Of a stretch of 64,000 bases of DNA, positions 7,973-61,872 are shown in pieces. Each line of letters opens with the position of its first letter. The first letter of the stretch is position 1. The stretch covers positions 39,599 through 103,598 of the forward strand of contig DATDXE010000017.1 in the NCBI GenBank assembly GCA_036517255.1, in the 5' to 3' direction. The position numbers were made by a program, and so were the translations under genes. The notes below the pieces were generated by a model. The model saw only the letters and a program-made list of their open reading frames with translations, did not search any database and had not been told where the DNA came from. This stretch comes from Minisyncoccota bacterium. GTDB taxonomy: Bacteria; Patescibacteriota; Minisyncoccia; Phycocordibacterales; WO2-35-19.

Positions 7973-10900
7973 ATGCAAAAAACAGCACTACCTAAGAAAT
8001 ATTTCAGTCGCTACAAGAAGCCTCTCGCGCCGATACCTAATCTGGTCAAGGATCAAGTCGATTCTTTCGATTGGTTGGTGAAAGAAGGCCTGAAGGAGGT
8101 TTTCAATGAATTTTCTTCCATCCAAGATTTCTCTGGTAAAAAATTCCAACTCGATTTCACCGATTTTGAGTTGGAGAAGCCTCGCTATGATGAATATTAT
8201 GCTAAGGATAAGAAGCTTTCCTACGAAGCCCCTCTCAAAGTAACCGTCCGCCTCACCAACAAACTGATGAGCACCGTGAAGGACCAGGAAATATTTATGG
8301 CCGATTTTCCTATTATTACCGACCACGGCACTTTTATTATAGGAGGAGTGGAGAGAGTGATTGTGCCTCAACTTACTCGATCTTCCGGAGCGATGTTTAC
8401 CAGTGTAGTCATGAAGGGCCTCAATCTTTTCGGGGCAAAAATTATTCCAGGTAGAGGAGCTTGGATCGAAATCGAAACTGAGGTAGATAAAAGTTTGTTT
8501 GTCCGTATCGATAGAAAAAGGAAGTTCCCAGCCACTGTACTTCTAAGAGCTTTTGGTGCTGAAACTGATACTGATATTTTTGATTTATTTAAAAATAATC
8601 CTGCAGCTAAAGAATATATAGAGAAAACTTTGGCCAAGGATCATGCCAAAACAGTGGATGATTCTTTTATAGAGATACATAGGAGGTTACGTGATGGCGA
8701 TTTGGCGACAGCAGAGAATGCTCGTGAATTTGTCAAAGGCCTATTCGGGGTGGAGCGATATGACCTGTCAAAAGTTGGTCGTTTCCGTTTCAATTCTAGG
8801 TTCGGTAAAACTCTCGGAGGGAAGGAAGCGGATAGGAAAACTCTTTCTCTCGACGATCTCGCTACTATCATAAATCACATCGTCACTCTCAATATTACTC
8901 CAGGTTCTACGCCTGACGATATCGATCACCTTTCTTCTAGGAGAGTGCGTTATGTCGGTGAACTTTTCCAGCAGAAAATCCGTTTTGGTATGGCTCAAAT
9001 CAAGCGTAATATTCAAAATAGGATGTCGACTATCGAAACTGACGTCACTCTTCCAGTACAATTTATTTCGCCTAAGCCGTTGCAGGCTCGTATCAAAGAA
9101 TTTTTTGCTACCAACCAGCTCTCACAATTTATGAGTCAGGAAAATTCCCTGGCTGAAATCGAACATTTACGTACTCTCTCGGCTCTCGGCCCTGGAGGCC
9201 TCAATCGTTCTCGCGCTGGATTCGAAGTGCGCGATGTACATCCTTCGCACTACGGTAGGCTTTGTCCCATCCACACTCCTGAAGGTCCAAACATCGGCCT
9301 AGTACTTCACCTTGCCGCTTATGCTCGTATCAACGAATTTGGCATTATCGAAACTCCTTATGCCAAAGTAAAAAATGGTAAAGTTTCAAGTGATGTGGTT
9401 TACCTCAACGCATTGGAAGATGAAAAATTCAATATCGCTCATGCCGCTACTCCATGTGACGAAGAAGGTAACATTATTCCAGAGACTGTGGAGATACGAC
9501 ATGCAGGTAAGCCGACCCTCTGTCCTAAGAGCAAGGTTGACTATATAGATGTAGCTACTAACCAAGCTTTTTCCGTTGCTACATCCATGATTCCATTCTT
9601 GGAAAATGATGATGCGAACAGGTCACTCATGGGTTCCAACATGCAAAAGCAAGCTGTTACCTGCGTTACTCCTGAAGCACCGCTTGTGGCTACCGGTATG
9701 GAGGCCCCTGCCATGAGGGATACAGGAAGGCTCATTCTTTCCAAAACTGAAGGTACTGTTACCGCTGTCGATGGAAGAAGCATCAAGGTGAAGGATGGCA
9801 AGGGCGAAACTCATGAATACAAACTGATAAACTTTTCCAAAACGAATTCCGCTACCTGTTTCCACCAGAGACCTTCGGTTGATTTGGGTGACAAAGTAAA
9901 AAAGGGCGATGTCCTAGCGGATACTTTGACTAGTCAGAATGGGGAAATGGCTATCGGTCAAAACGTGCTGGTAGCTTTCCTTTCTTGGAGTGGCGCCAAC
10001 TATGAGGATGCAATCATTCTTTCCGAGCGTCTGATCAAAGAAAATAAATTTACTTCGATGCACATCGACGAATTTGTAGTCAGTGTGCGTGATACTAAGC
10101 TTGGTCCTGAAGTTACCACTTGTGATATTCCAAATGTGGGCGAAACCAAACTTCGTAACTTGGCGGAGGACGGTATTATCCGTGTCGGCGCTGAGGTCAG
10201 GCCAGGTGATATTCTTGTCGGTAAGATTACTCCAAAAGGTGAAACTCAACTTACTCCGGAAGAACGCTTGCTCCGATCGCTCTTCGGAGAAAAAGCTCGT
10301 GATGTGAAGGATACTTCCAAGAGGATGGAAGGAGGTAAAAAGGGTAGGGTAATCAGGGTGCAGGTATTTTCTCGAGAACAGGGTGATAAGCTAGACTCTG
10401 GTATTTTGAAAAGAATACATATTGAAATTGCTCAAATAAGAAATGTTTCAGTCGGCGATAAACTTGCAGGTCGACATGGTAACAAGGGAGTCATTTCCAA
10501 AATATTACCAGTCGAGGATATGCCATACATGGCTGATGGTACTCCGATGGATGTCATCCTTACTCCTCTCGGTGTGCCTAGCCGTATGAACTTGGGTCAA
10601 ATTTTAGAACTTCATCTCGGGTTAGCCGCGAACACTTTGAAATATCAAGCTGTCGTACCTCCTTTTTCTGGAGCTACTCATGCTGAAGTAAAGGAAGAAT
10701 TACAGAAGGCGGGATTCAGCGAAACAGGAAAAATCCAACTCTATGATGGTAGGACGGGCATGGCTTTTGAGAAGGAAACAGCTGTCGGTTATATGTATGT
10801 CTTGAAGCTTGACCACATGGTGGAGGACAAAATTCACATGCGTTCCATCGGGCCTTACTCTCTTATTACCCAACAGCCTCTTGGTGGTAAGGCTCAGGGC

Positions 10901-11143
10901 GGAGGCCAGAGGTTTGGAGAAATGGAGGTCTGGGCACTCTTGGGTCATGGTGCTGCTTATGTCCTGCGAGAAATGCTCACTATTAAGTCCGACGATATCG
11001 TAGGTAGGAGCGCCGCTTTCGATTCCATCGTCAAGGGAGAGAGGATAAGTGAGTCCAATATCCCAGCTTCCTTCAATGTGCTGATAAACAATCTTCGTGG
11101 CCTGGCTCTCGACGTCGACATGATAAAGGAAATTCAAAATTAA
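7973..11143 (+). CDS. rpoB: DNA-directed RNA polymerase subunit beta
   Basis: 1056 aa; conserved RpoB blocks throughout (e.g. …GGVERVIVPQL…, …NMQKQAV…, …GRHGNKGVISKI…). Confidence 0.95.
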   Translation: MQKTALPKKYFSRYKKPLAPIPNLVKDQVDSFDWLVKEGLKEVFNEFSSIQDFSGKKFQLDFTDFELEKPRYDEYYAKDKKLSYEAPLKVTVRLTNKLMSTVKDQEIFMADFPIITDHGTFIIGGVERVIVPQLTRSSGAMFTSVVMKGLNLFGAKIIPGRGAWIEIETEVDKSLFVRIDRKRKFPATVLLRAFGAETDTDIFDLFKNNPAAKEYIEKTLAKDHAKTVDDSFIEIHRRLRDGDLATAENAREFVKGLFGVERYDLSKVGRFRFNSRFGKTLGGKEADRKTLSLDDLATIINHIVTLNITPGSTPDDIDHLSSRRVRYVGELFQQKIRFGMAQIKRNIQNRMSTIETDVTLPVQFISPKPLQARIKEFFATNQLSQFMSQENSLAEIEHLRTLSALGPGGLNRSRAGFEVRDVHPSHYGRLCPIHTPEGPNIGLVLHLAAYARINEFGIIETPYAKVKNGKVSSDVVYLNALEDEKFNIAHAATPCDEEGNIIPETVEIRHAGKPTLCPKSKVDYIDVATNQAFSVATSMIPFLENDDANRSLMGSNMQKQAVTCVTPEAPLVATGMEAPAMRDTGRLILSKTEGTVTAVDGRSIKVKDGKGETHEYKLINFSKTNSATCFHQRPSVDLGDKVKKGDVLADTLTSQNGEMAIGQNVLVAFLSWSGANYEDAIILSERLIKENKFTSMHIDEFVVSVRDTKLGPEVTTCDIPNVGETKLRNLAEDGIIRVGAEVRPGDILVGKITPKGETQLTPEERLLRSLFGEKARDVKDTSKRMEGGKKGRVIRVQVFSREQGDKLDSGILKRIHIEIAQIRNVSVGDKLAGRHGNKGVISKILPVEDMPYMADGTPMDVILTPLGVPSRMNLGQILELHLGLAANTLKYQAVVPPFSGATHAEVKEELQKAGFSETGKIQLYDGRTGMAFEKETAVGYMYVLKLDHMVEDKIHMRSIGPYSLITQQPLGGKAQGGGQRFGEMEVWALLGHGAAYVLREMLTIKSDDIVGRSAAFDSIVKGERISESNIPASFNVLINNLRGLALDVDMIKEIQN

Positions 11144-11152
11144 TTAAAATTT

Positions 11153-14100
11153 ATGAGACCAAATCAATCACAAGAGGCAAATAATTTCGAAGCTATGAAA
11201 ATAGCTCTCGCTTCGCCGGAGCGTATCAAGGAGTGGTCGTTCGGTGAGGTCACCAAGCCTGAAACCATCAACTATCGCACCCAAAGGAGCGAGCGCAGTG
11301 GTCTTTTCGACGAGAAAATATTCGGTCCGGACAAGGATTTTGAATGTTACTGTGGAAAATATCGCGGCATCCGCTACAAAGGCATTGTCTGTGAAAAATG
11401 TGGTGTTGAAATCACTCGCTCGATTGTGCGCCGTGAAAGGATGGGCCACATCGAGCTTGCTGCTCCCGTCTCTCATGTTTGGTTTCTCAAATCGATGCCA
11501 TCGAGGATTTCTCTTATTCTCGGCATTCCTGCACAAGACATAGAGAAGGTGGTTTATTTTGCTGGTTATATCATCACTCGTGTTTCTGCTGAAGAAAAAG
11601 CTGGTATCTTGCGCGATCTCGATTCAGAATACAAATCCAAATCAAAACAACTAAATGAGGAAAAAGCTAAGGAATCTTTGAAAGAAAGGCTTCTCGCTAC
11701 CAAGAAGGAAATCGAAAGCTTGGTTGAAGGTAAAGTCTTGGACGAAGTCGAATATCACAAATATTCAGTGAAGTACGGTACTCTTTTCGAAGCTCAAATA
11801 GGTGCTGAAGCCATTTTCGATATTTTCAAGAAAATAGATATGGTTAAATTGGAGAAGAAGTTACTCGAAGAATACGAAAAAGCTGGAGCTATGGAATCAG
11901 CCAAAATTGCCAAGCGGCTTTCCACTATTCAGGCCATGATCAAATCAGGAGTGCGTCCAGAATGGATGTTCCTTACCCGTATTCCAGTTATTCCTCCGGC
12001 TCTTCGCCCGATGGTGCCTCTTGATGGTGGCAGGTATGCTACAAGCGATGTTAATGACTTATATAGGAGAGTAATCAATCGCAACAACCGATTGAAAAAA
12101 TTGAAGGAGATCCATGCTCCAGATGTTATTTTGCGTAATGAAAAAAGAATTTTGCAAGAAGCTGTGGACGCTCTGCTCGACAACTCCATCCGTCATGGTT
12201 CTCAAAGTGGAGCTACTGCAGGTATCCAGACAAAAGCTAGAGCTTTGAAATCGCTCTCTGATAACCTCAAAGGTAAAAAAGGCCTTTTCCGTCTGAACCT
12301 TTTGGGTAAACGCGTCGATTATTCTGGTCGTTCGGTTATCGTCGTTGGTCCCGACCTCAAATTACATCAGTGTGGTTTGCCGAAGTATATGGCTCTCGAA
12401 CTCTTCAGACCTTTTATTATTTCCGAACTTATCAAGAAGGAGCTGGCTTACAACGTACGTGGAGCCGGGCGACTTATCGATGAAGCTCTGCCTGAGGTTT
12501 GGGCTATTCTTGAAGAGGTAATCAAGGGTAAATATGTACTCTTGAACCGAGCTCCTACTCTTCACCGATTGGGCATCCAAGCTTTCCAGCCGATTCTGGT
12601 TGAGGGAAGTGCTATTCAGGTGCACCCTCTTACTTGTAATGCTTTTAATGCCGATTTCGATGGCGACACTATGTCAGTCCATGTTCCTCTTTCTGAAGAG
12701 GCACAGATGGAAGCCAAGGAAATCATGGCCGCCAATAAAAACATCTTGAAGCCGGGAAGCGGCGATCCTACTATTTCGAACAAACCCCTCGATATTATTC
12801 TGGGTTGTTATTGGATGACAAAAGACGTATCGGGAGAAAAAGGGGAGAACATGATTTTTGAGGATCCAAACAGTGCCATCATTGCTTACAACTTCAGTGC
12901 TGTTAGTTTACGCGCTAAGATTAAAGTTCTAGGCAACGATTCTCTGAAGTACGCACAATTCGGAGGTAAGATTTTCGAAACTACCATTGGTAAAATCCTC
13001 TTCAACTTCGTATTGCCTCCAGATTATCCTTTTGTCAACTATGAAGTAACTAAGAAGAAATTAGTTCAGCTTGTCGACGATCTTACTAAAATTTATGGCA
13101 TAGGATCTGTACCGGCCATCATGGATAAAATAAAAGAATTTGGTTTTCGTTACGCTACTGTTTCTGGTACTACTTGGGCCATGTACGACATCAATGTGCC
13201 GGAGGAAAAGCACGCTGTTATTGAAGGGGCTTTGAAGAAAGTGGAGGAAGTTTCTAATCAGTACGATCAAGGTTTGGTTTCGGAAGAAGAGAAGAAAATA
13301 AAAAATATTGAAATTTGGACAGCCGCTAAAGACGATATTGAGAAGAAAGTGCAGGATTCGCTTGATAAAACAGGCTCTGTTTACGATCTAGTCAATTCTG
13401 GAGCCAGAGGTTCCTTCGGACAGCTTACTCAGATGATTGGTATGAAAGGACTTATCGTGAACACTGCTGGAGAAACTATCGATTTTCCTATCACTTCTTC
13501 TTACAAAGAAGGCCTGACTCCGCTTGAATACTTCATCACTACTCACGGTGCTCGTAAGGGTATGACGGACACGGCTCTCAATACCGCTAAAGCCGGTTAT
13601 CTCACGAGGAGACTTTTCGATGTAGCCCAGGATGCTATTGTTTTGGAAGAGGACTGTAAAACCAAAGAGGGTATTATAATTAGTCGAGAAACCTCTGCAG
13701 GTATGGAAGTATCTCTCTCTAAACTGGTCAAGGGCCGCTACCTTTCACATGATGTTCTCGATAAAGAGGGTAAAACTCTGTTTGAAAGGAATCATTATTT
13801 AACTAAGGAAGATGCGAAGGCGATAGAAGACGCGGGAGTAGAGAGTGTTACCGTCCGTTCTCCTCTTACTTGCAAAACTTTAAGTGGCGTTTGTATCTAT
13901 TGCTACGGCTCTGATCTCGGTCGCGATGAGGTTATAGATATTGGTGAAGCTATCGGTACTGTGGCTGCTCAGGCGATCGGCGAGCCTGGTACTCAGCTGA
14001 CGATGAGGACCTTCCATGCTGGAGGTACCGCATCTGTCGGAGGCGACATTACTCAAGGTTTGCCTCGTGTTGAGGAAATTTTCGAAAATCGTACTCCTAA

Positions 14101-14812
14101 AAATCCTGCCCTAGTCTCACATATCGATGGTATCGTGTCCGAGATAAAGAGTGACGGTAAAGACAGAACCATAATACTGGCTTCTTCAGGGGCAGAAAAA
14201 AGTAAAGCTAAATCAAATCTTGAATATGCCGTAAACTTCAACCGCGTTATCTTGGTGAAGCAAGGGGATGAAATAAAGAAAGGTGATGTTATGACTGATG
14301 GTTCCATTGATCTTGATGAATTGTTCAAGTATGCCGGTAAGGAAGCTACCCAGAATTACATCATCGATGAAATTACCAAAATTTATGAGCTTCAGGGAGA
14401 GCCAGTTTCTAGGAAACATATAGAAGTTATCATAAGGCAAATGTTTAGCCGTCGTAAAATCAAGAGCCCAGGCGATACCACCTTCTCTTCAAGTGATGTT
14501 ATTCCTCTTTCTGAAGTGGAAAAAGTAAATAATGTCATGAAGGAGCAGAATAAAGAAGAAGCCAAGACGGAGGCTGTCTTGCTTGGGATATCAGAGGTTT
14601 CTTTGACTAGGACTAGTTTCCTCTCATCCGCTTCCTTTGAGCGCACCACCAGGTCTCTTATCACCAACTCACTTCGTGGAGCCGTGGACAACCTTACCGG
14701 CCTCAAGGAAAATGTCATCATCGGCCGTGTCATCCCTGCTGGTACCGGTTTCCCAGGTAGCCGCAAGTTCAAGATGATACAAGAATTGCAGGAGAAGTTG
14801 GATAGAAGATAA
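11153..14812 (+). CDS. rpoC: DNA-directed RNA polymerase subunit beta'
   Basis: 1219 aa; Zn-finger CYCGKYRGIRYKGIVCEKCGVE, catalytic NADFDGD motif, immediately downstream of rpoB. Confidence 0.95.
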   Translation: MRPNQSQEANNFEAMKIALASPERIKEWSFGEVTKPETINYRTQRSERSGLFDEKIFGPDKDFECYCGKYRGIRYKGIVCEKCGVEITRSIVRRERMGHIELAAPVSHVWFLKSMPSRISLILGIPAQDIEKVVYFAGYIITRVSAEEKAGILRDLDSEYKSKSKQLNEEKAKESLKERLLATKKEIESLVEGKVLDEVEYHKYSVKYGTLFEAQIGAEAIFDIFKKIDMVKLEKKLLEEYEKAGAMESAKIAKRLSTIQAMIKSGVRPEWMFLTRIPVIPPALRPMVPLDGGRYATSDVNDLYRRVINRNNRLKKLKEIHAPDVILRNEKRILQEAVDALLDNSIRHGSQSGATAGIQTKARALKSLSDNLKGKKGLFRLNLLGKRVDYSGRSVIVVGPDLKLHQCGLPKYMALELFRPFIISELIKKELAYNVRGAGRLIDEALPEVWAILEEVIKGKYVLLNRAPTLHRLGIQAFQPILVEGSAIQVHPLTCNAFNADFDGDTMSVHVPLSEEAQMEAKEIMAANKNILKPGSGDPTISNKPLDIILGCYWMTKDVSGEKGENMIFEDPNSAIIAYNFSAVSLRAKIKVLGNDSLKYAQFGGKIFETTIGKILFNFVLPPDYPFVNYEVTKKKLVQLVDDLTKIYGIGSVPAIMDKIKEFGFRYATVSGTTWAMYDINVPEEKHAVIEGALKKVEEVSNQYDQGLVSEEEKKIKNIEIWTAAKDDIEKKVQDSLDKTGSVYDLVNSGARGSFGQLTQMIGMKGLIVNTAGETIDFPITSSYKEGLTPLEYFITTHGARKGMTDTALNTAKAGYLTRRLFDVAQDAIVLEEDCKTKEGIIISRETSAGMEVSLSKLVKGRYLSHDVLDKEGKTLFERNHYLTKEDAKAIEDAGVESVTVRSPLTCKTLSGVCIYCYGSDLGRDEVIDIGEAIGTVAAQAIGEPGTQLTMRTFHAGGTASVGGDITQGLPRVEEIFENRTPKNPALVSHIDGIVSEIKSDGKDRTIILASSGAEKSKAKSNLEYAVNFNRVILVKQGDEIKKGDVMTDGSIDLDELFKYAGKEATQNYIIDEITKIYELQGEPVSRKHIEVIIRQMFSRRKIKSPGDTTFSSSDVIPLSEVEKVNNVMKEQNKEEAKTEAVLLGISEVSLTRTSFLSSASFERTTRSLITNSLRGAVDNLTGLKENVIIGRVIPAGTGFPGSRKFKMIQELQEKLDRR

Positions 14813-14815
14813 TTA

Positions 14816-14852
14816 ATTGAAAGATGGAAAAAAGGAAAGATGGAAAGATTTG
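14816..14852. repeat. Left arm of imperfect inverted repeat (GAAAGATGGAAAAAAGGAAAGATGGAAAGATT) flanking a two-gene cassette
   Basis: Reverse complement of 15683-15716 is GGAAAGATTTAAAAATGGAAAAATGGAAAGATT; shared …ATGGAAAGATT ends. Confidence 0.35.
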
Positions 14853-14874
14853 GGGAGGGGGAAATTAAAAGATT

Positions 14875-15249
14875 ATGGTTTACAAAAGATTCGAGGAGAT
14901 AAAAGTGTGGGATGAATCGAGAAACTTTGTAAATGACATATACAATCTTTTCAGAACCCATCAAAAGCTTAGCAAAGACTATTCTCTAGTGGATCAACTA
15001 AAAAGAGCCTCATACTCTATAATGCTCAATATTGCTGAAGGCTTTGAGAGAGGATCAAATAAAGAGTTTGCTAACTTCCTTAATATTGCTAAGGGTTCTG
15101 CTGGCGAAGTTCGCTCGATTCTCTATATTTTGAAAGATAATCAGTATATAAACGAAAGTGAATTTGAGAATCTTTGTTTGAAGGTCGAAAATATTTCCAC
15201 CCAGCTTTCAAACTTCAGAAAATTCTTGATTGCTAATATAAAAAAATAA
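14875..15249 (+). CDS. Four-helix-bundle protein (TIGR02436, the so-called 23S rRNA intervening-sequence protein family; Avd-like fold)
   Basis: 124 aa; …YSLVDQLKRASYSIMLNIAEGFERGSNKEFANFLNIAKGSAGEVRSILYI… family signature; strong RBS GGGGAGGGGG. Confidence 0.7.
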   Translation: MVYKRFEEIKVWDESRNFVNDIYNLFRTHQKLSKDYSLVDQLKRASYSIMLNIAEGFERGSNKEFANFLNIAKGSAGEVRSILYILKDNQYINESEFENLCLKVENISTQLSNFRKFLIANIKK

Positions 15250-15250
15250 A

Positions 15251-15682
15251 ATGGAAGCAGTTGGAAAAACAAATACCCCATTCATATATCCTTCTGTCGA
15301 AAAAGAGATTGGAGAAATCGAGAGAGTGGCTAGAGAATTGAATTTAGGAAAGTCCTTCGCCAATGATTTTTTAGAGAGATCCAAACATACAGAACTTGTA
15401 GAACTATCTGAGAATGATTGGTCAAGGCTAGAAAATACAGACTCGTTTGTTATTTCTGTTGGTGATTGGGATTCTGTAGCGAAAAATACCCTCGCCGGTC
15501 GGCTGGAAAATCCACGTAATTCAGAATTATTGAAGTCAAAAATTGAATCTGGGGTAGTTCTCGATGCTCCTATTGTTGTAAAGATAGGAGATGTGTTGCA
15601 TTTAGTTAGTGGCAATACACGTCTTATGGTAGCAAGAGCTTTGGGAATTAGACCGAAGGTATTGATTGTGGACATGAACTAA
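15251..15682 (+). CDS. Hypothetical protein with C-terminal ParB/sulfiredoxin-like (ParBc nuclease-fold) region
   Basis: 143 aa; …PIVVKIGDVLHLVSGNTRLMVARALGIRPKVLIV… resembles the ParB N-terminal GxRR-type block but with GNTR. Confidence 0.4.
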   Translation: MEAVGKTNTPFIYPSVEKEIGEIERVARELNLGKSFANDFLERSKHTELVELSENDWSRLENTDSFVISVGDWDSVAKNTLAGRLENPRNSELLKSKIESGVVLDAPIVVKIGDVLHLVSGNTRLMVARALGIRPKVLIVDMN

Positions 15683-15716
15683 TTTAATCTTTCCATTTTT
15701 CCATTTTTAAATCTTT
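15683..15716. repeat. Right arm of the imperfect inverted repeat flanking the cassette
   Basis: See 14816-14852. Confidence 0.35.
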
Positions 15717-15720
15717 CCTT

Positions 15721-17427
15721 ATGACTTCCTCCCCCGTAGAACAAATAAAAGATCGGCTCGATGTGGTCGAGGTTCTTGGGTCGTATATAAAACTAGATAA
15801 GGCTGGTAGAAACTATAAAGCTCGTTGCCCTTTCCACAATGAAAAGACACCCTCTTTTATCGTCTCTCCCGAAAGGCAGTCCTTCTACTGTTTTGGTTGT
15901 CAGGCTAAGGGTGATATGTTCGAATTTGTCCAAAAGTTTGAAGGTCTTGATTTTAGGGAAACTCTGAAGCTCCTCGCGGAAAAAGCTGGAGTAGAACTCA
16001 AAAATTATGACAACCACGCTCATGGTGAAGAGAAGAATAGAAAAGAAAAAATAATCGAAGTTCTTGATGCAGCTACTACTTTGTATGAAAATCTTTTGGC
16101 CAGTGGAAATCGTGTGTCCACAGAAATAATGCGTTATTTAGAGGCCAGGGGGATTAAAAAAGAAACTATAAAGAAATGGCGAATCGGATGGGCTCCAGAA
16201 GGGTGGAGAACAGCGCTCACTGGTCTAGGAGAAATGGGATTTAAAGAAAAAGAATTATTAGAGGCAGGATTGATCAAAAAAACTGAAGATGGAAGCAAAA
16301 CATACGATGTATTTCGAGGCCGAATCATGTTTCCCATCTTTGATCCGAGTGGGGAGGTGATCGCTTTCTCCGGGCGCATCTATAATGATCTCGGCAATTC
16401 TCCTAAATATGTCAATACTCCCGAAACTTTAGTTTTCAAAAAATCTGATGTGCTTTATGGTTTACACGAAGCTAAAAGCGAAATACGTCGGCTCGACTAT
16501 ACTGTATTAGTCGAGGGCCAGGTAGACTTAGTTCTCTCACATCAGGCTGGAGTGCGTAATACTGTCGCCAGTTCGGGCACTGCCCTCACGGAATCCCATT
16601 TGAAGCGGATTCAGAAATTGTCGAACCGTTGTATTATCGCCTACGACAGCGATCCCGCTGGTCGGAGTGCCGCCAAAAGGAGTGGCGAGCTTGCTCTTTC
16701 TCTTGGTATGGAAGTAAAAATTGCTTCTCTGCCTGACGGGGAAGATCCGGGCGATGTTATCTTGAAATCGGGAGATAAGTGGAAAGAGCTCTTGAAATCA
16801 TCCGTTAATCTGGTAGAATTCGTAATCGACGAAGCGGTACGGAAAAATAAAAAAATTGGTGAACTCCCACGTGAGTTCAATAAGTCCGTAATACCACTTC
16901 TATCTTTGATTCAAAGCGAGATGGCCCGCTCTGAATTTGTAACTCTTTCTGCTCGCAAGACTGGCTTGCCAGAGAGTAGTATTTTGGGAGATTTAAAAAA
17001 ATTTTCTAGTAAGGCCTTACTCTCAAATAATGAGAGAGAGCAAAATAAAGAAACTTCGGTTGAGCCGTTTGTCCTTACTCCGGAAGAAATGCTTGCTGGT
17101 ATTATCGTTGGTTCTCTTCTTCCAGAAAAAAATCAGGAAGAAATCAGAGAACGGTTTAAGGAAATGTTGGGAGAAGAATTTTTTCGGGAGCTTGTCGAAA
17201 ATTCAAGATTCGACAAGGATACTCTCATCTTTGAAACTGAGGCTCGTTTCGATGGGTTTGATATAAGCGAAGTTGCTCAGGAGTTACTTACAAGGATAGA
17301 AAAAAGCATTCTACTACGACGTCTTTCTGGATTGGGTAGAGAGCTTGATAATGTCGAGAGTGATTCGGAAAGGGATAAATTAAAAGAGGAGGCGCTCTCT
17401 GTTTCAAAAAGACTTTCTAATATTTAA
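15721..17427 (+). CDS. dnaG: DNA primase
   Basis: 568 aa; Zn-binding CPFHNEKTPSF…CFGC, TOPRIM region; no Shine-Dalgarno upstream. Confidence 0.9.
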   Translation: MTSSPVEQIKDRLDVVEVLGSYIKLDKAGRNYKARCPFHNEKTPSFIVSPERQSFYCFGCQAKGDMFEFVQKFEGLDFRETLKLLAEKAGVELKNYDNHAHGEEKNRKEKIIEVLDAATTLYENLLASGNRVSTEIMRYLEARGIKKETIKKWRIGWAPEGWRTALTGLGEMGFKEKELLEAGLIKKTEDGSKTYDVFRGRIMFPIFDPSGEVIAFSGRIYNDLGNSPKYVNTPETLVFKKSDVLYGLHEAKSEIRRLDYTVLVEGQVDLVLSHQAGVRNTVASSGTALTESHLKRIQKLSNRCIIAYDSDPAGRSAAKRSGELALSLGMEVKIASLPDGEDPGDVILKSGDKWKELLKSSVNLVEFVIDEAVRKNKKIGELPREFNKSVIPLLSLIQSEMARSEFVTLSARKTGLPESSILGDLKKFSSKALLSNNEREQNKETSVEPFVLTPEEMLAGIIVGSLLPEKNQEEIRERFKEMLGEEFFRELVENSRFDKDTLIFETEARFDGFDISEVAQELLTRIEKSILLRRLSGLGRELDNVESDSERDKLKEEALSVSKRLSNI

Positions 17428-17459: not shown

Positions 17460-18671
17460 ATGTCAAAAAAAATAGCTAAAACTAAAAAATATAAAAAACT
17501 AAAAACAGCTCGCTTGAAAAAGGTGGTGAAGAAGCCTGCAAAAAAAGCCATAAAGAAAGAGGTAAAATCAAAGAAGCTTAAAAAAGAAGCTCCAGCTCAA
17601 AAGGCAAAGAAGTCAGCTATGGATGCCGGTGCTCTTCGCCTCATAGCCAAAGGTAAGGATAGAGGCTTCATTACCTACGATGAAATATTAAAAGAATTTC
17701 CAACTGTCGAGAATGATGTCATTTTTCTGGAAGGATTGTATGAAAAACTTTCAGGTTCAGGTATCGATGTGCTCGAAGGAGGCGGTCTTTTGGATGAATC
17801 GGCCTCAAACAAAACTCTCGATTATGTAAAAGAAGATGGTACTTATGATTCTATACAGATGTATTTGAAAGAAATTGGTCAACACCAACTCATTACTGGA
17901 GCTATGGAAAAAGAGCTGGCTAAAAGAATTGCTCTTGGCGATCTCGAGGCTAAAAATCTTTTAGCTCGTGCCAACCTGCGACTAGTAGTTTCTATCGCCA
18001 AAAAATATATTGGCCGTTCTGCCGACCTTACTCTCCTCGATCTTATCCAGGAAGGGAACCTGGGGCTTTTCAAAGCGGTTGATAAATTCGATTGGACCAA
18101 GGGTTATAAATTTTCCACCTATGCTACTTGGTGGATTCGACAGGCTATTACTCGTGCTCTTGCCGATCAATCACGCACTATCCGTGTGCCGGTGCATATG
18201 GTTGAAACTATTGCTAAATATAAGCAGGTAGTGAGGAGGCTTTCTCAAGATTTGGGTCGCGATCCACTAGCTGAGGAAATTGCGCTGGAAATGAATATCG
18301 AACCGGAGAAGGTCTATATGATCGAAAAAATCGATCAAGCCACTGTATCCCTTGAGACTCCAGTAGGGGATGAGGAAGACAAGTCGACTTTAGGAGACTT
18401 CATGGCTGATGATAAAATACTTTCTCCTGATCAGGAATCCAATCGTCGCATTATTCGTGACCAACTGATGGAAATTCTAGCCGAGCTTCCGGAAAAAGAG
18501 AGGAGAATTATAGAAATGAGGAACGGCTTAGCCGATGGCATCTATCATACTTTGGAAGATGTGGGTAAAGAGTTTGGGGTTACTCGTGAACGTATCCGTC
18601 AAATCGAAGCCAAAGCTCTGGAAAAAATGCGTCAGCATGAAAAGGCAAACCGTCTTCAGAATTATTTATAA
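17460..18671 (+). CDS. rpoD: RNA polymerase sigma-70 factor with lysine-rich N-terminal tail
   Basis: 403 aa; regions 2-4 (…[40 protein letters not shown]…; …[24 protein letters not shown]…). Confidence 0.9.
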
Positions 18672-37154: not shown

Positions 37155-38501
37155 ATGGCAAGTAAACCTATAATAGTACGGTTCCCCCCTAGTCCGACGG
37201 GGTTGCTCCATGTGGGAGGAGTAAGGACTGCTCTTTATAATTACCTTTTTGCTAAACAGAACGGGGGTAAATTTTTACTACGTATAGAAGACACAGATAA
37301 AGAGAGGAGTAAAAAAGAGTATGAGGAAGATATTATAGATTCTTTAAATTGGCTCGGTTTAGATTGGGATAACAAAGGAAGTGAGTGGAGACAAAGTGAC
37401 AGAACAGAAATTTACAGAGGGAAAATACAAGAACTTATCCAGAAAGGAGCTGCTTATATTGCAGAATTACAGGAAGGAGAGACGGACGAAGATAAAAGAG
37501 TAGTGAGATTCAAAAACCCAGGAGGAAAAATAAAATTTCAAGATTTGATCCGAGGGGAGGTGGAAATGGAAGTAGGTGATCTCAATGATTTTATCATTGC
37601 CAAAAATATTGAGGAACCACTCTACCACCTGGTTGTCGTTGTAGACGATATGGAGTCGAGAGTGACTCATGTCATAAGAGGGGAAGATGGTATTTCAAAT
37701 ACTCCTCGTCAGATACTCATTCTCGAAGCTCTAGGTGGCGCTCGGCCTATTTACGCCCATTTACCACTAGTGCTTGCAGAGGATAAATCAAAACTCTCGA
37801 AGAGGAAGCATGGAGAGGCTGTTTCGCTCAAGTACTATCGCGATCGTGGTTATAGCCCGGAAGCAATATTAAATTTCGTTGCATTGATTGGCTGGAATCC
37901 TGGAACGGATCAGGAGGTATTTACTTTGGATGAGTTGGTCAAGGTATTTGACCTCTCTAAGGTGCAGAAAAAGGGAGGAGTGTTTGATATCAAAAAATTG
38001 GATTGGGTAAGTCGAGAGCATTTATTGAAAGAAAGTAAAAATGGAAAGATGGAAAAATTGGGAGAACAAATACAGAAAACAAAATATAAGGATAGTGAAA
38101 AATGGGGTGATTATGGATTCCTCGATAAATTTTTAGATATAATCTTAGATAGAATTCATAGGTGGGGCGAAGTGAGCGAGGTGCTTGAGGCAGGGGAGTA
38201 TGACTACTTATTTATCGATCCTGTCTTGGACAGGGGATTGATCGCTTGGAAAAAAAGTAGTCCAGAAAAAGCGAAAGAAAATTTAGAGAAGATAATTGAA
38301 ATCATTGATTCAAAAGTAAATGATAAAAGATTAGAGATAGAGACATTAGCAGGGGAGAGAGGGAAGGGAGATGTGCTTTGGCCCCTGCGTTATTCCCTAT
38401 CCGGTAAAGAAAAATCACCTGACCCGTTTACGCTACTTGATATTTTAGGAGTGGAGGAAAGTAAAAAAAGAATAAAAGCTGTGATTGAGATATTAAATTA
38501 A
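37155..38501 (+). CDS. gltX: Glutamate--tRNA ligase
   Basis: …RFPPSPTGLLHVGGVRTALYNY… HIGH-type region and KLSKRK motif. Confidence 0.85.
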   Translation: MASKPIIVRFPPSPTGLLHVGGVRTALYNYLFAKQNGGKFLLRIEDTDKERSKKEYEEDIIDSLNWLGLDWDNKGSEWRQSDRTEIYRGKIQELIQKGAAYIAELQEGETDEDKRVVRFKNPGGKIKFQDLIRGEVEMEVGDLNDFIIAKNIEEPLYHLVVVVDDMESRVTHVIRGEDGISNTPRQILILEALGGARPIYAHLPLVLAEDKSKLSKRKHGEAVSLKYYRDRGYSPEAILNFVALIGWNPGTDQEVFTLDELVKVFDLSKVQKKGGVFDIKKLDWVSREHLLKESKNGKMEKLGEQIQKTKYKDSEKWGDYGFLDKFLDIILDRIHRWGEVSEVLEAGEYDYLFIDPVLDRGLIAWKKSSPEKAKENLEKIIEIIDSKVNDKRLEIETLAGERGKGDVLWPLRYSLSGKEKSPDPFTLLDILGVEESKKRIKAVIEILN

Positions 38502-61791: not shown

Positions 61792-61872
61792 GCCGGAGTG
61801 GCGGAATGGTAGACGCGCACGACTCAAAATCGTGTATCGCAAGGTGTGAGAGTTCAAGTCTCTCCTCCGGCA
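61792..61872 (+). tRNA. tRNA-Leu (anticodon CAA), long variable arm, no encoded CCA
   Basis: Acceptor GCCGGAG/CTCCGGC, anticodon stem CACGA/TCGTG with loop CTCAAAA, variable arm TATCGCAAGGTGTG, T-arm GAGAG-TTCAAGT-CTCTC. Confidence 0.8.

Follow-up and report, generated by a model that had tools for sequence, protein, structure and literature searches.

The genes rpoC and dnaG of a Minisyncoccota bacterium are separated, on a 64,000-nt stretch of contig DATDXE010000017.1 (hereafter the window), by a gap of 908 nt that contains two tightly packed + strand open reading frames (ORFs), ORF1 and ORF2. Here, we report that this 0.9-kb segment is an insertion built around a gene for a 23S rRNA intervening-sequence protein (IVP, family PF05635/TIGR02436), and that it is probably a cassette of the intervening-sequence (IVS) type, i.e., an IVP gene bracketed by complementary short tandem arrays that sits in the rpoC-dnaG intercistronic spacer of a housekeeping operon. 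The unit would have the form left arm, IVP, optional passenger gene, and right arm; as part of the same interpretation, ORF2 is probably the passenger in this arrangement rather than a protein that works together with the IVP.

The IVP gene and its complementary arms

On the + strand, the upstream host gene rpoC (11153..14812) is assigned from the ORF list and from the Pfam RNA_pol_Rpb1 domains found on the identical gene in locus L005, and the downstream host gene dnaG (15721..17427) is assigned from the ORF list. In four Patescibacteria (L015-L018; 50-55% identity at the RpoC C-terminus), the gene order is rpoB-rpoC-dnaG-rpoD with an rpoC-dnaG spacer of about 30-65 nt, and no repeats of the cassette type are present between rpoC and dnaG in any of the four. 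Because rpoC is directly followed by dnaG in these relatives, the 0.9-kb segment is an insertion relative to their arrangement, as the initial annotation had suspected from the window alone.

ORF1 (14875..15249, +; 124 aa) is the IVP gene. Its product had been placed in the TIGR02436 four-helix-bundle family, and the profile matches bear this out: 117.5 bits for TIGR02436 (cut-off 24) and 120.9 bits with an E value of 3.5e-35 for PF05635 (23S_rRNA_IVP; cut-off 33.8); at the level of sequence, the membership is unambiguous. Additional profile matches are to 2GSC (E 5.7e-15) and 2RLD (E 3.7e-07), both of which are four-helix-bundle structures deposited with five chains, and by this homology the IVP is predicted to be a five-subunit four-helix-bundle protein. 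Residues R44, S48, N52, and E55 are invariant across 30 homologues (RxxxSxxxNxxE). The motif reported for the IVP family is GxxRxxxSxxxNxxE (PMC3936711), and its leading G is replaced by Q41 in ORF1.

The four-helix-bundle superfamily is shared by TIGR02436/PF05635 and Avd, the accessory protein of diversity-generating retroelements (DGRs). ORF1 differs from Avd in that it belongs to the PF05635 core and lies outside the phage Avd group, the match to the phage Avd family in PHROG being weak (E 0.039). No reverse transcriptase is encoded within +/-5 kb of the cassette and no direct repeats resembling the template and variable repeats (TR/VR) of a DGR are found in the 64 kb, so the segment is not a complete DGR, as had been stated at the outset, and we also reject a DGR remnant. 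There are two direct-repeat families of at least 40 nt (70-75% identity) in the window, neither of them TR/VR-like: gltX contains one D1 copy, and the two D2 copies are immediately 5' of gene starts.

The closest ORF1 homologues occupy the same rpoC-dnaG slot in other Paceibacteria (L111, L112, and L113). Among the genomes with the order rpoC-IVP-X-dnaG, in which X is a second gene, the IVP is 81-87% identical, vs 69-73% for RpoC, 68-84% for RpoD, and 46-48% for DnaG, whereas four-fold synonymous sites are near saturation (0.42-0.54 for the IVP vs 0.22-0.42 in the long rpoC, rpoD, and dnaG comparisons). Since IVP identity exceeds that of RpoC while synonymous sites are near saturation, the IVP and its arms are old and under purifying selection at the rpoC-dnaG site. 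Recent horizontal "homing" of the IVP as the source of the high identity is disfavored by the same near-saturation. For the proposal of a "selfish or accessory cassette", this means that the insertion stands but that "selfish" is doubtful for this clade.

The left arm (14819..14850, +) is purine-rich and consists of 3.9 tandem copies of the 8-mer GAAAGATG; the right arm (15686..15717, +) is pyrimidine-rich, contains 2.4 copies of TTTCCATT, and stops 3 nt short of the dnaG ATG. The arms are 32 nt each, 28/32 (88%) complementary, and 835 nt apart, and their score was reached by 0/5000 composition-preserving shuffles of both intergenic segments, which substantiates the imperfect inverted repeats first noted around the gene pair. 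The calculated energy of the arm duplex is -34.7 kcal/mol (reached by 0/300 shuffles), and in both the minimum free energy and the centroid fold of 14800-15735, the arm-arm stem forms the closing helix. Within the bracket and 5' of the IVP, a Shine-Dalgarno-like element, GGGGAGGGGG (14855..14864, +; read from the sequence), is the strongest such run among the gene starts of the window.

The arms recur with the IVP. GGAAAGAT-type arrays are located 5' of the IVP in the window, in the related locus L014, and in L111, L112, and L113 (5/5), and arrays of the reverse complement, ATCTTTCC(AT), are located 5' of dnaG in all five loci; L014 has TAATTTAATCTTTCCATTTTTCCAT of the right arm at 100% identity. 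Positions 14701-15800 are identical across six independent same-species contigs (ENA, JGI, and Logan), which rules out an assembly artifact. An invertible segment is disfavored, the orientation being the same in these six contigs and in all related species. It had been suggested to look for the same cassette and repeats elsewhere in the genome; within the 64-kb window, there is no second cassette or repeat copy. A 44-nt look-alike at 38022-38065, 75% identical to the left arm, is located inside a gltX-like ORF (37155-38501), in which it encodes the Lys/Glu-rich LLKESKNGKMEKLGE; no complementary partner lies near it, and we consider it a chance resemblance.

A passenger slot with an interchangeable second gene

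In L111, L112, and L113, the gene order is rpoC-IVP-X-dnaG-rpoD, X being a SET-domain gene, a NUDIX gene, and a tRNA_bind (tRNA-binding domain) gene, respectively. L014 has rpoC, an IVP remnant, ORF2, and dnaG, and its ORF2 is the nearest relative of that in the window (63% identity). The IVP of L014 has decayed through a deletion of ~218 nt and a frameshift, ORF2 is intact, and the bracket is weakened (6/300 shuffles reach it). The conserved unit is the IVP with its arms, and the second gene is interchangeable. The initial annotation had described a two-gene cassette, a four-helix-bundle protein together with a ParB/sulfiredoxin (Srx)-like protein; this description does not hold for the bracketed unit, whose second gene is ParB/Srx-like in the window and L014 and of other kinds in L111-L113. 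Please note that each site in the candidate phyla radiation (CPR) rests on 1-5 species.

ORF2 (15251..15682, +), the passenger gene, starts 1 nt past the IVP stop codon and encodes a 143-aa ParB/Srx-fold protein of an unnamed family. No match to ORF2 was found in Pfam, NCBIfam, or PADLOC, none of 50 family members has a Pfam match (ParBc, PF02195, included), and the PHROG matches of the family are weak (ParB-like phrog_723; phrog_498 in 20/50 members; best E 0.007). An AlphaFold model of ORF2 was built on 50 homologues (pLDDT 90.5, pTM 0.84) and compared with the PDB using Foldseek. ParB/Srx superfamily proteins (ParB CTPase domains, Srx, PadC, Noc, KorB, SerK, and SbnI) account for 49 of the 50 listed matches; the one remaining match is 1vk1, an unnamed entry from Pyrococcus furiosus. 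Among the PDB matches, the best has an E value of 1.8e-3 with a probability of 1.0, and the best target-normalized TM-score, 0.59, is to Arabidopsis Srx. When the model was compared with the viral library BFVD, the named matches were nearly all ParB/Srx, and one match was full-length (TM 0.75, E 1.6e-8). Of the ParB/Srx assignment made at first, the fold is thus supported by the model and its structural matches, but membership of ParBc by sequence is not.

In the family alignment, G121-N122-T123-R124 (GxxR box) is invariant or nearly so, and the invariant HLVSGNTRL lines up with the phosphate-binding box HLIAGERRL of Helicobacter pylori ParB (alignment E 0.43, not significant alone). Other conserved motifs, GEIERV and LENTDS, are in the N-terminal part. 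ORF2 shares the predicted fold with the superfamily but differs from its characterized members in several respects: there is no significant ParBc or Pfam sequence match; the catalytic Cys of Srx (GCHR) is missing, ORF2 having GNTR and the family alignment no conserved Cys; and neither a helix-turn-helix nor a C-terminal dimerization domain is present, the 143 residues forming one domain plus N-terminal helices in the model. We take ORF2 to be, most likely, a small ParB/Srx-fold protein that binds or hydrolyzes nucleotides.

The ORF2 family has 383 members at 90% clustering and at least 731 clusters at 50% identity (E <= 1e-3); its named members are nearly all from Paceibacterota/Patescibacteria, and all are annotated as hypothetical. 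The closest true homologue is an uncharacterized protein of Rhodothermus phage RM378, Rm378p033 (L122:2749-3198), a 149-aa hypothetical protein (hhalign probability 96.9%, E 1.4e-10) that has the SGNTR...GI.PKV motif in common with the family. The full-length BFVD match seems to be this protein, judging from the equal length of 149 aa and the profile homology. Rm378p033 is encoded between tail-sheath and dNMP-phosphatase genes, and the ORF2 family hence reaches a cultured, sequenced phage. ORF2 defines a ParB/Srx-fold family that has a phage homologue and no Pfam model. Some relatives of ORF2 (P0243, P0248, P0244, P0328, P0331, and P0349) are fused to DnaJ, HD_4 (RelA/SpoT-type), or DUF5661; these fusions are sporadic, possibly gene-calling artifacts, and were not used.

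The genomic neighborhood of ORF2 homologues bears on whether IVP and ORF2 belong together. At 85 other loci with ORF2 homologues, no IVP, rpoC, dnaG, or repeat bracket was found and no neighbor is recurrent, the commonest neighbor family occurring in 5/85 loci; a conserved neighborhood as a clue to ORF2 function was therefore not obtained. A dedicated two-gene module of the IVP and the ParB/Srx-like protein, e.g., a toxin-antitoxin, defense, or nucleic-acid-modifying pair, would be in keeping with the 1-nt gene spacing, which suggests translational coupling, with the presence of the pair in L014 as well, and with the fact that many ParB/Srx-fold proteins are nucleases or NTPases. We nevertheless regard such a module as highly improbable: SET, NUDIX, or tRNA_bind replaces the second gene in relatives that keep the same IVP and arms, the IVP is absent near the other ORF2-family members (0/85), the IVP of L014 is a pseudogene next to an intact ORF2, and neither protein has a PADLOC match. 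A toxin-antitoxin or defense pair in particular is rejected, given the missing PADLOC match and the interchangeable partner gene.

Brackets around IVP genes at other sites

To score brackets, the 100 nt upstream of each IVP were searched, as reverse complement, against the 1.2 kb downstream, and the best match was compared with 300 shuffles. At 8/8 CPR IVP loci, this best match falls in the spacer directly before the next host gene, and in seven of the eight at most 1/300 shuffles reach the score, L014 being the exception. No bracket was found around 73 ORF2-family loci elsewhere (maximum z 3.4, median 0.3). The bracket follows the IVP, not ORF2. Viral contigs as a source of further IVP loci gave just two distant matches, both of which are without a bracket.

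Another Paceibacteria site, flanked by dksA-like and comM genes, holds IVPs that are 73-76% identical and have the arms TTGAAAGATTGAA / TTCAATCTTTCAA, which depart from the window arms by matched G-to-T and C-to-A changes. The passenger slot of these dksA-comM cassettes is empty in L114 and, in L116, holds a 94-aa hydrophobic ORF without a Pfam match (L116:4378-4662). An IVP that is 64% identical, located after rpsF-ssb-rpsR, has unrelated arms, CAATTCTACTAAGGAAC / GTTCCTTTGTAGAATTG. The matrix of left-by-right arm duplex energies is block-diagonal by site; what is kept is complementarity rather than any particular motif, with the two arms co-varying in sequence.

Beyond the CPR, IVP genes on plasmids of cyanobacteria and Riemerella are co-directional within operons, such as cas10-IVP-cmr3, cas6-IVP-cas4, and rows of conjugation genes. 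Twelve of these 14 plasmid genes are bracketed by locus-specific complementary short tandem arrays (e.g., of CAGGAGT, GGGAACA, GGGAAAA, and GGGTGTA units), and the bracket scores are higher than those of neighboring genes (Mann-Whitney p 1.5e-4). Over all loci, the IVP is co-oriented with the upstream gene in 21/22. Individual plasmid loci vary. The cas10-IVP-cmr3 locus in the CRISPR operon of a cyanobacterial plasmid (L128:1466-1893) has a clear inverted bracket, AGGAGATAAGGAGATAG / CTATCTCCTTACCTCCT. At cas6-IVP-cas4, likewise in a CRISPR operon of a cyanobacterial plasmid (L129:1283-1962), long direct AAAAGCT/AAAAGCC arrays are present on both sides, and a complementary array only past cas4. 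The sole IVP antisense to both neighbors, on a Calothrix plasmid (L125:1342-1888), is without an inverted bracket and has tandem GCTGTTA heptamers only far upstream.

These comparisons bear on whether the window repeat could be a chance product of low-complexity purine- and pyrimidine-rich spacers. Both arms are indeed compositionally biased and internally repetitive. However, the composition-keeping shuffles never reached the observed score, the bracket recurs with different sequences at the CPR loci and at most of the plasmid loci, and it is missing around the 73 control genes of the ORF2 family; chance is already effectively refuted by the shuffles, the recurring brackets, and these controls.

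The unit of insertion can be read from two Nostoc plasmids with 91-97% identity between their flanking genes. Within one and the same operon, the two plasmids have distinct IVP cassettes at distinct junctions, and each shows the empty site of the other: TAG GTT ATG vs TAG-arm-IVP-arm-ATG at one junction, and TAA TTT ATG vs TAA-arm-IVP-arm-ATG at the other. Because of these reciprocal empty sites, the unit of insertion is the arms plus the ORF, placed between one gene's stop codon and the start codon of the following gene. Hairpins made of arms alone, with no ORF, also occur (L134:475-600 and L126:2783-2935), with CAGGAGT-type heptamer arms as in the neighboring IVP cassettes; the one in L134 is missing from the same junction in L135. 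Both look like miniature derivatives of the cassette.

It could be argued that the repeats serve the host in regulating dnaG-rpoD, with long-range RNA pairing or a repeated protein-binding motif that throttles primase translation or insulates dnaG from rpoBC, and with the link to the IVP being secondary. The right arm ends almost at the dnaG start codon, its sequence is fully conserved between the window and L014, the motif is kept across species with saturated synonymous sites, and the 30-nt dnaG leader (15691-15720) has the highest pyrimidine content of 50 window genes (purine fraction 0.17). We consider this explanation improbable, as similar brackets surround IVP genes beside the unrelated comM, efp, cmr3, and conjugation genes, relatives without the IVP are also without repeats between rpoC and dnaG, and the arms come and go together with the IVP in the Nostoc plasmids. 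Sequestration of a dnaG Shine-Dalgarno sequence by the arms was set aside, a Shine-Dalgarno-like motif being present in just 11/50 window genes.

A more serious alternative is that the repeats act on DNA, as termini of a non-autonomous element resembling miniature inverted-repeat transposable elements (MITEs), moved by a recombinase or transposase that is encoded elsewhere or with help of the IVP; the RNA stem would then be incidental. This live rival overlaps with the IVS-type interpretation and may coexist with an RNA role, and on its own we judge it rather unlikely. MITEs have inverted termini, ORF-less derivatives, and insertion polymorphism between near-identical operons, as the cassette does: arms and IVP insert as one unit in Nostoc, arms-only copies exist, and IVPs with related arms (a common GAAAGAT core) are found at different chromosomal sites. 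On the other hand, no transposase or recombinase is located in or near the cassettes (window +/-5 kb and CPR loci), neither the window nor the Nostoc junctions show a target-site duplication, and copy number is low: the window has a single IVP, and ~700 kb of other CPR loci have none. From locus to locus, the arm sequences are very different, which a single transposase would not readily accommodate, and they have long been held under selection at a fixed site. Furthermore, the cassette differs from MITEs in being strictly co-oriented with its host operons, an orientation followed at nearly all loci, and in being inserted exactly between the stop and the next start codon. With transposase and target-site duplication absent and a single copy in the window and those other CPR loci, the cassette is no classical transposon or MITE.

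Likeness to known systems and a possible mechanism

The host operon in the window begins with rpoB (7973-11143, +; ORF list), upstream of rpoC, and ends with rpoD (17460..18671, +), the array rpoB-rpoC-dnaG-rpoD being contiguous in relatives. The ORFs within +/-5 kb of the cassette are rpoB, rpoC, dnaG, rpoD, VanY, SelR, and small ORFs. Since the surroundings of the cassette show no conspicuous promoter or terminator, the cassette is probably transcribed together with rpoBC and dnaG-rpoD. No rRNA is present in the 64-kb window and no Rfam match in 14700-15800; the sole Rfam match in the 64 kb is a single tRNA gene (61792-61872). In one same-species locus, dnaG seems to be split by ~260 nt with a 109-aa ORF (L006:5900-6300); the segment ends in Ns, and we regard it as a scaffolding artifact.

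The system most similar to the cassette is the 23S rRNA IVS, as in Leptospira and Coxiella burnetii. In C. burnetii, the IVP-family ORF S23p is located in a loop closed by a stem of 28-bp terminal inverted repeats, and RNase III cleaves this stem (PMC4990558). IVP ORFs are also present in CPR rRNA insertions (PMC11270868). The cassette has the same PF05635 protein in the loop and the same anatomy, with terminal inverted repeats of about 20-30 bp around the ORF in the IVS; ORF-bearing and ORF-less forms exist in both, and both are distributed sporadically with empty sites. The differences are that the host RNA of the cassette would be a protein-coding operon transcript (rpoC-dnaG spacer) with no rRNA helix, so that the location that defines an IVS is not the one found here, that the cassette arms are short tandem arrays, that its loop holds a second, interchangeable gene, and that RNase III processing, reported for the Coxiella IVS, is proposed for the cassette by analogy. 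IVP genes have been recorded inside cas loci, with no mention of repeats (PMC3936711), and rRNA IVSs with their conserved ORF have been known for ~30 years, with neither function nor mechanism of spread established (PMC4990558). Inverted-repeat brackets of IVP genes outside rRNA are not described in the literature that we searched, coverage of which is incomplete.

By analogy with rRNA IVSs, we suggest the following sequence of events. The cassette would be transcribed within the rpoBC-dnaG-rpoD transcript, and the arms would pair into a ~30-bp duplex, so that the 0.9-kb insert becomes a closed loop. RNase III may then cut the arm duplex, which would free an mRNA of the IVP (with ORF2) and part the rpoBC from the dnaG-rpoD messages; owing to this cleavage, the host operon would be left undisturbed by the insert. 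A loop of this kind would tolerate extra genes, and the variable passenger would thereby be explained.

RNase III sites between cistrons are known in phage T7, in lambda, and in the E. coli rplJL-rpoBC operon. There, a double-stranded RNA element between cistrons parts the messages, as is proposed for the cassette; those sites differ in being local hairpins that evolved in place, whereas the cassette arms are 0.4-0.9 kb apart and travel with the gene.

Several points weigh against the IVS-type interpretation or limit it. RNA pairing and cleavage by RNase III are proposed purely by analogy, and the RNase III gene (rnc) was not found among the 10 window ORFs checked. Long-range folds of 0.9-kb RNAs are unreliable and count as weak evidence. 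Arms made of tandem repeats are odd for a plain processing stem and hint at an additional or other role, e.g., protein binding or slippage at insertion. In alignments of eight CPR loci, arm mismatches are without a G-U bias on the + strand (by hand count, three + strand wobble, three - strand wobble, and nine other), and this wobble-pair analysis, by which an RNA-level might have been told from a DNA-level function, was uninformative (3 vs 3). Duplex energies are likewise similar on both strands, which therefore leaves room for a DNA-level role of the repeats; the missing strand bias in both respects is a point for that alternative. The strong conservation of the IVP proves a role but says nothing on which. 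L014, the locus with the decayed IVP, is a single 910-bp contig, and in principle, the passenger may have been resident for a long time instead of arriving later. Several of the plasmid loci share ancestry, so the independent cases are fewer than 14, and the overall number of loci is modest.

A broader generalization is possible, and we put it forward tentatively. The IVP with complementary tandem arms may represent a widespread, unrecognized class of mobile "intercistronic intervening sequences", which would insert with stop/start precision in host operons (rpoBC-dnaG, rpsF-ssb-rpsR, cas10-cmr3, and conjugation) as well as in rRNA, ride on host transcription, self-excise via an RNase III-cleaved stem, and exist in forms with the IVP or without an ORF. 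In Paceibacteria, the excised loop might serve as a protected slot that captures and exchanges passengers such as the ParB/Srx-like gene.

Most PF05635 genes lie outside rRNA and are annotated merely as "four helix bundle protein", and some are located inside restriction operons. The present comparison places the ORF and inverted-repeat anatomy of an rRNA IVS in the spacers of protein-coding operons as well, where the complete unit is present or absent as a block, exactly between a stop codon and the start codon that follows it, and where the IVP can be under stronger constraint than RpoC; from these three features, what was a curiosity becomes a defined element, with cis parts (the arms) and a trans part (the IVP). 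Such an element would explain the IVP genes inside cas, restriction, and conjugation operons, and the arm bracket gives annotators a rule by which these cassettes can be recognized. For the genome-reduced CPR bacteria, it points to a route by which small accessory genes may be added to essential operons while the operons stay unbroken.

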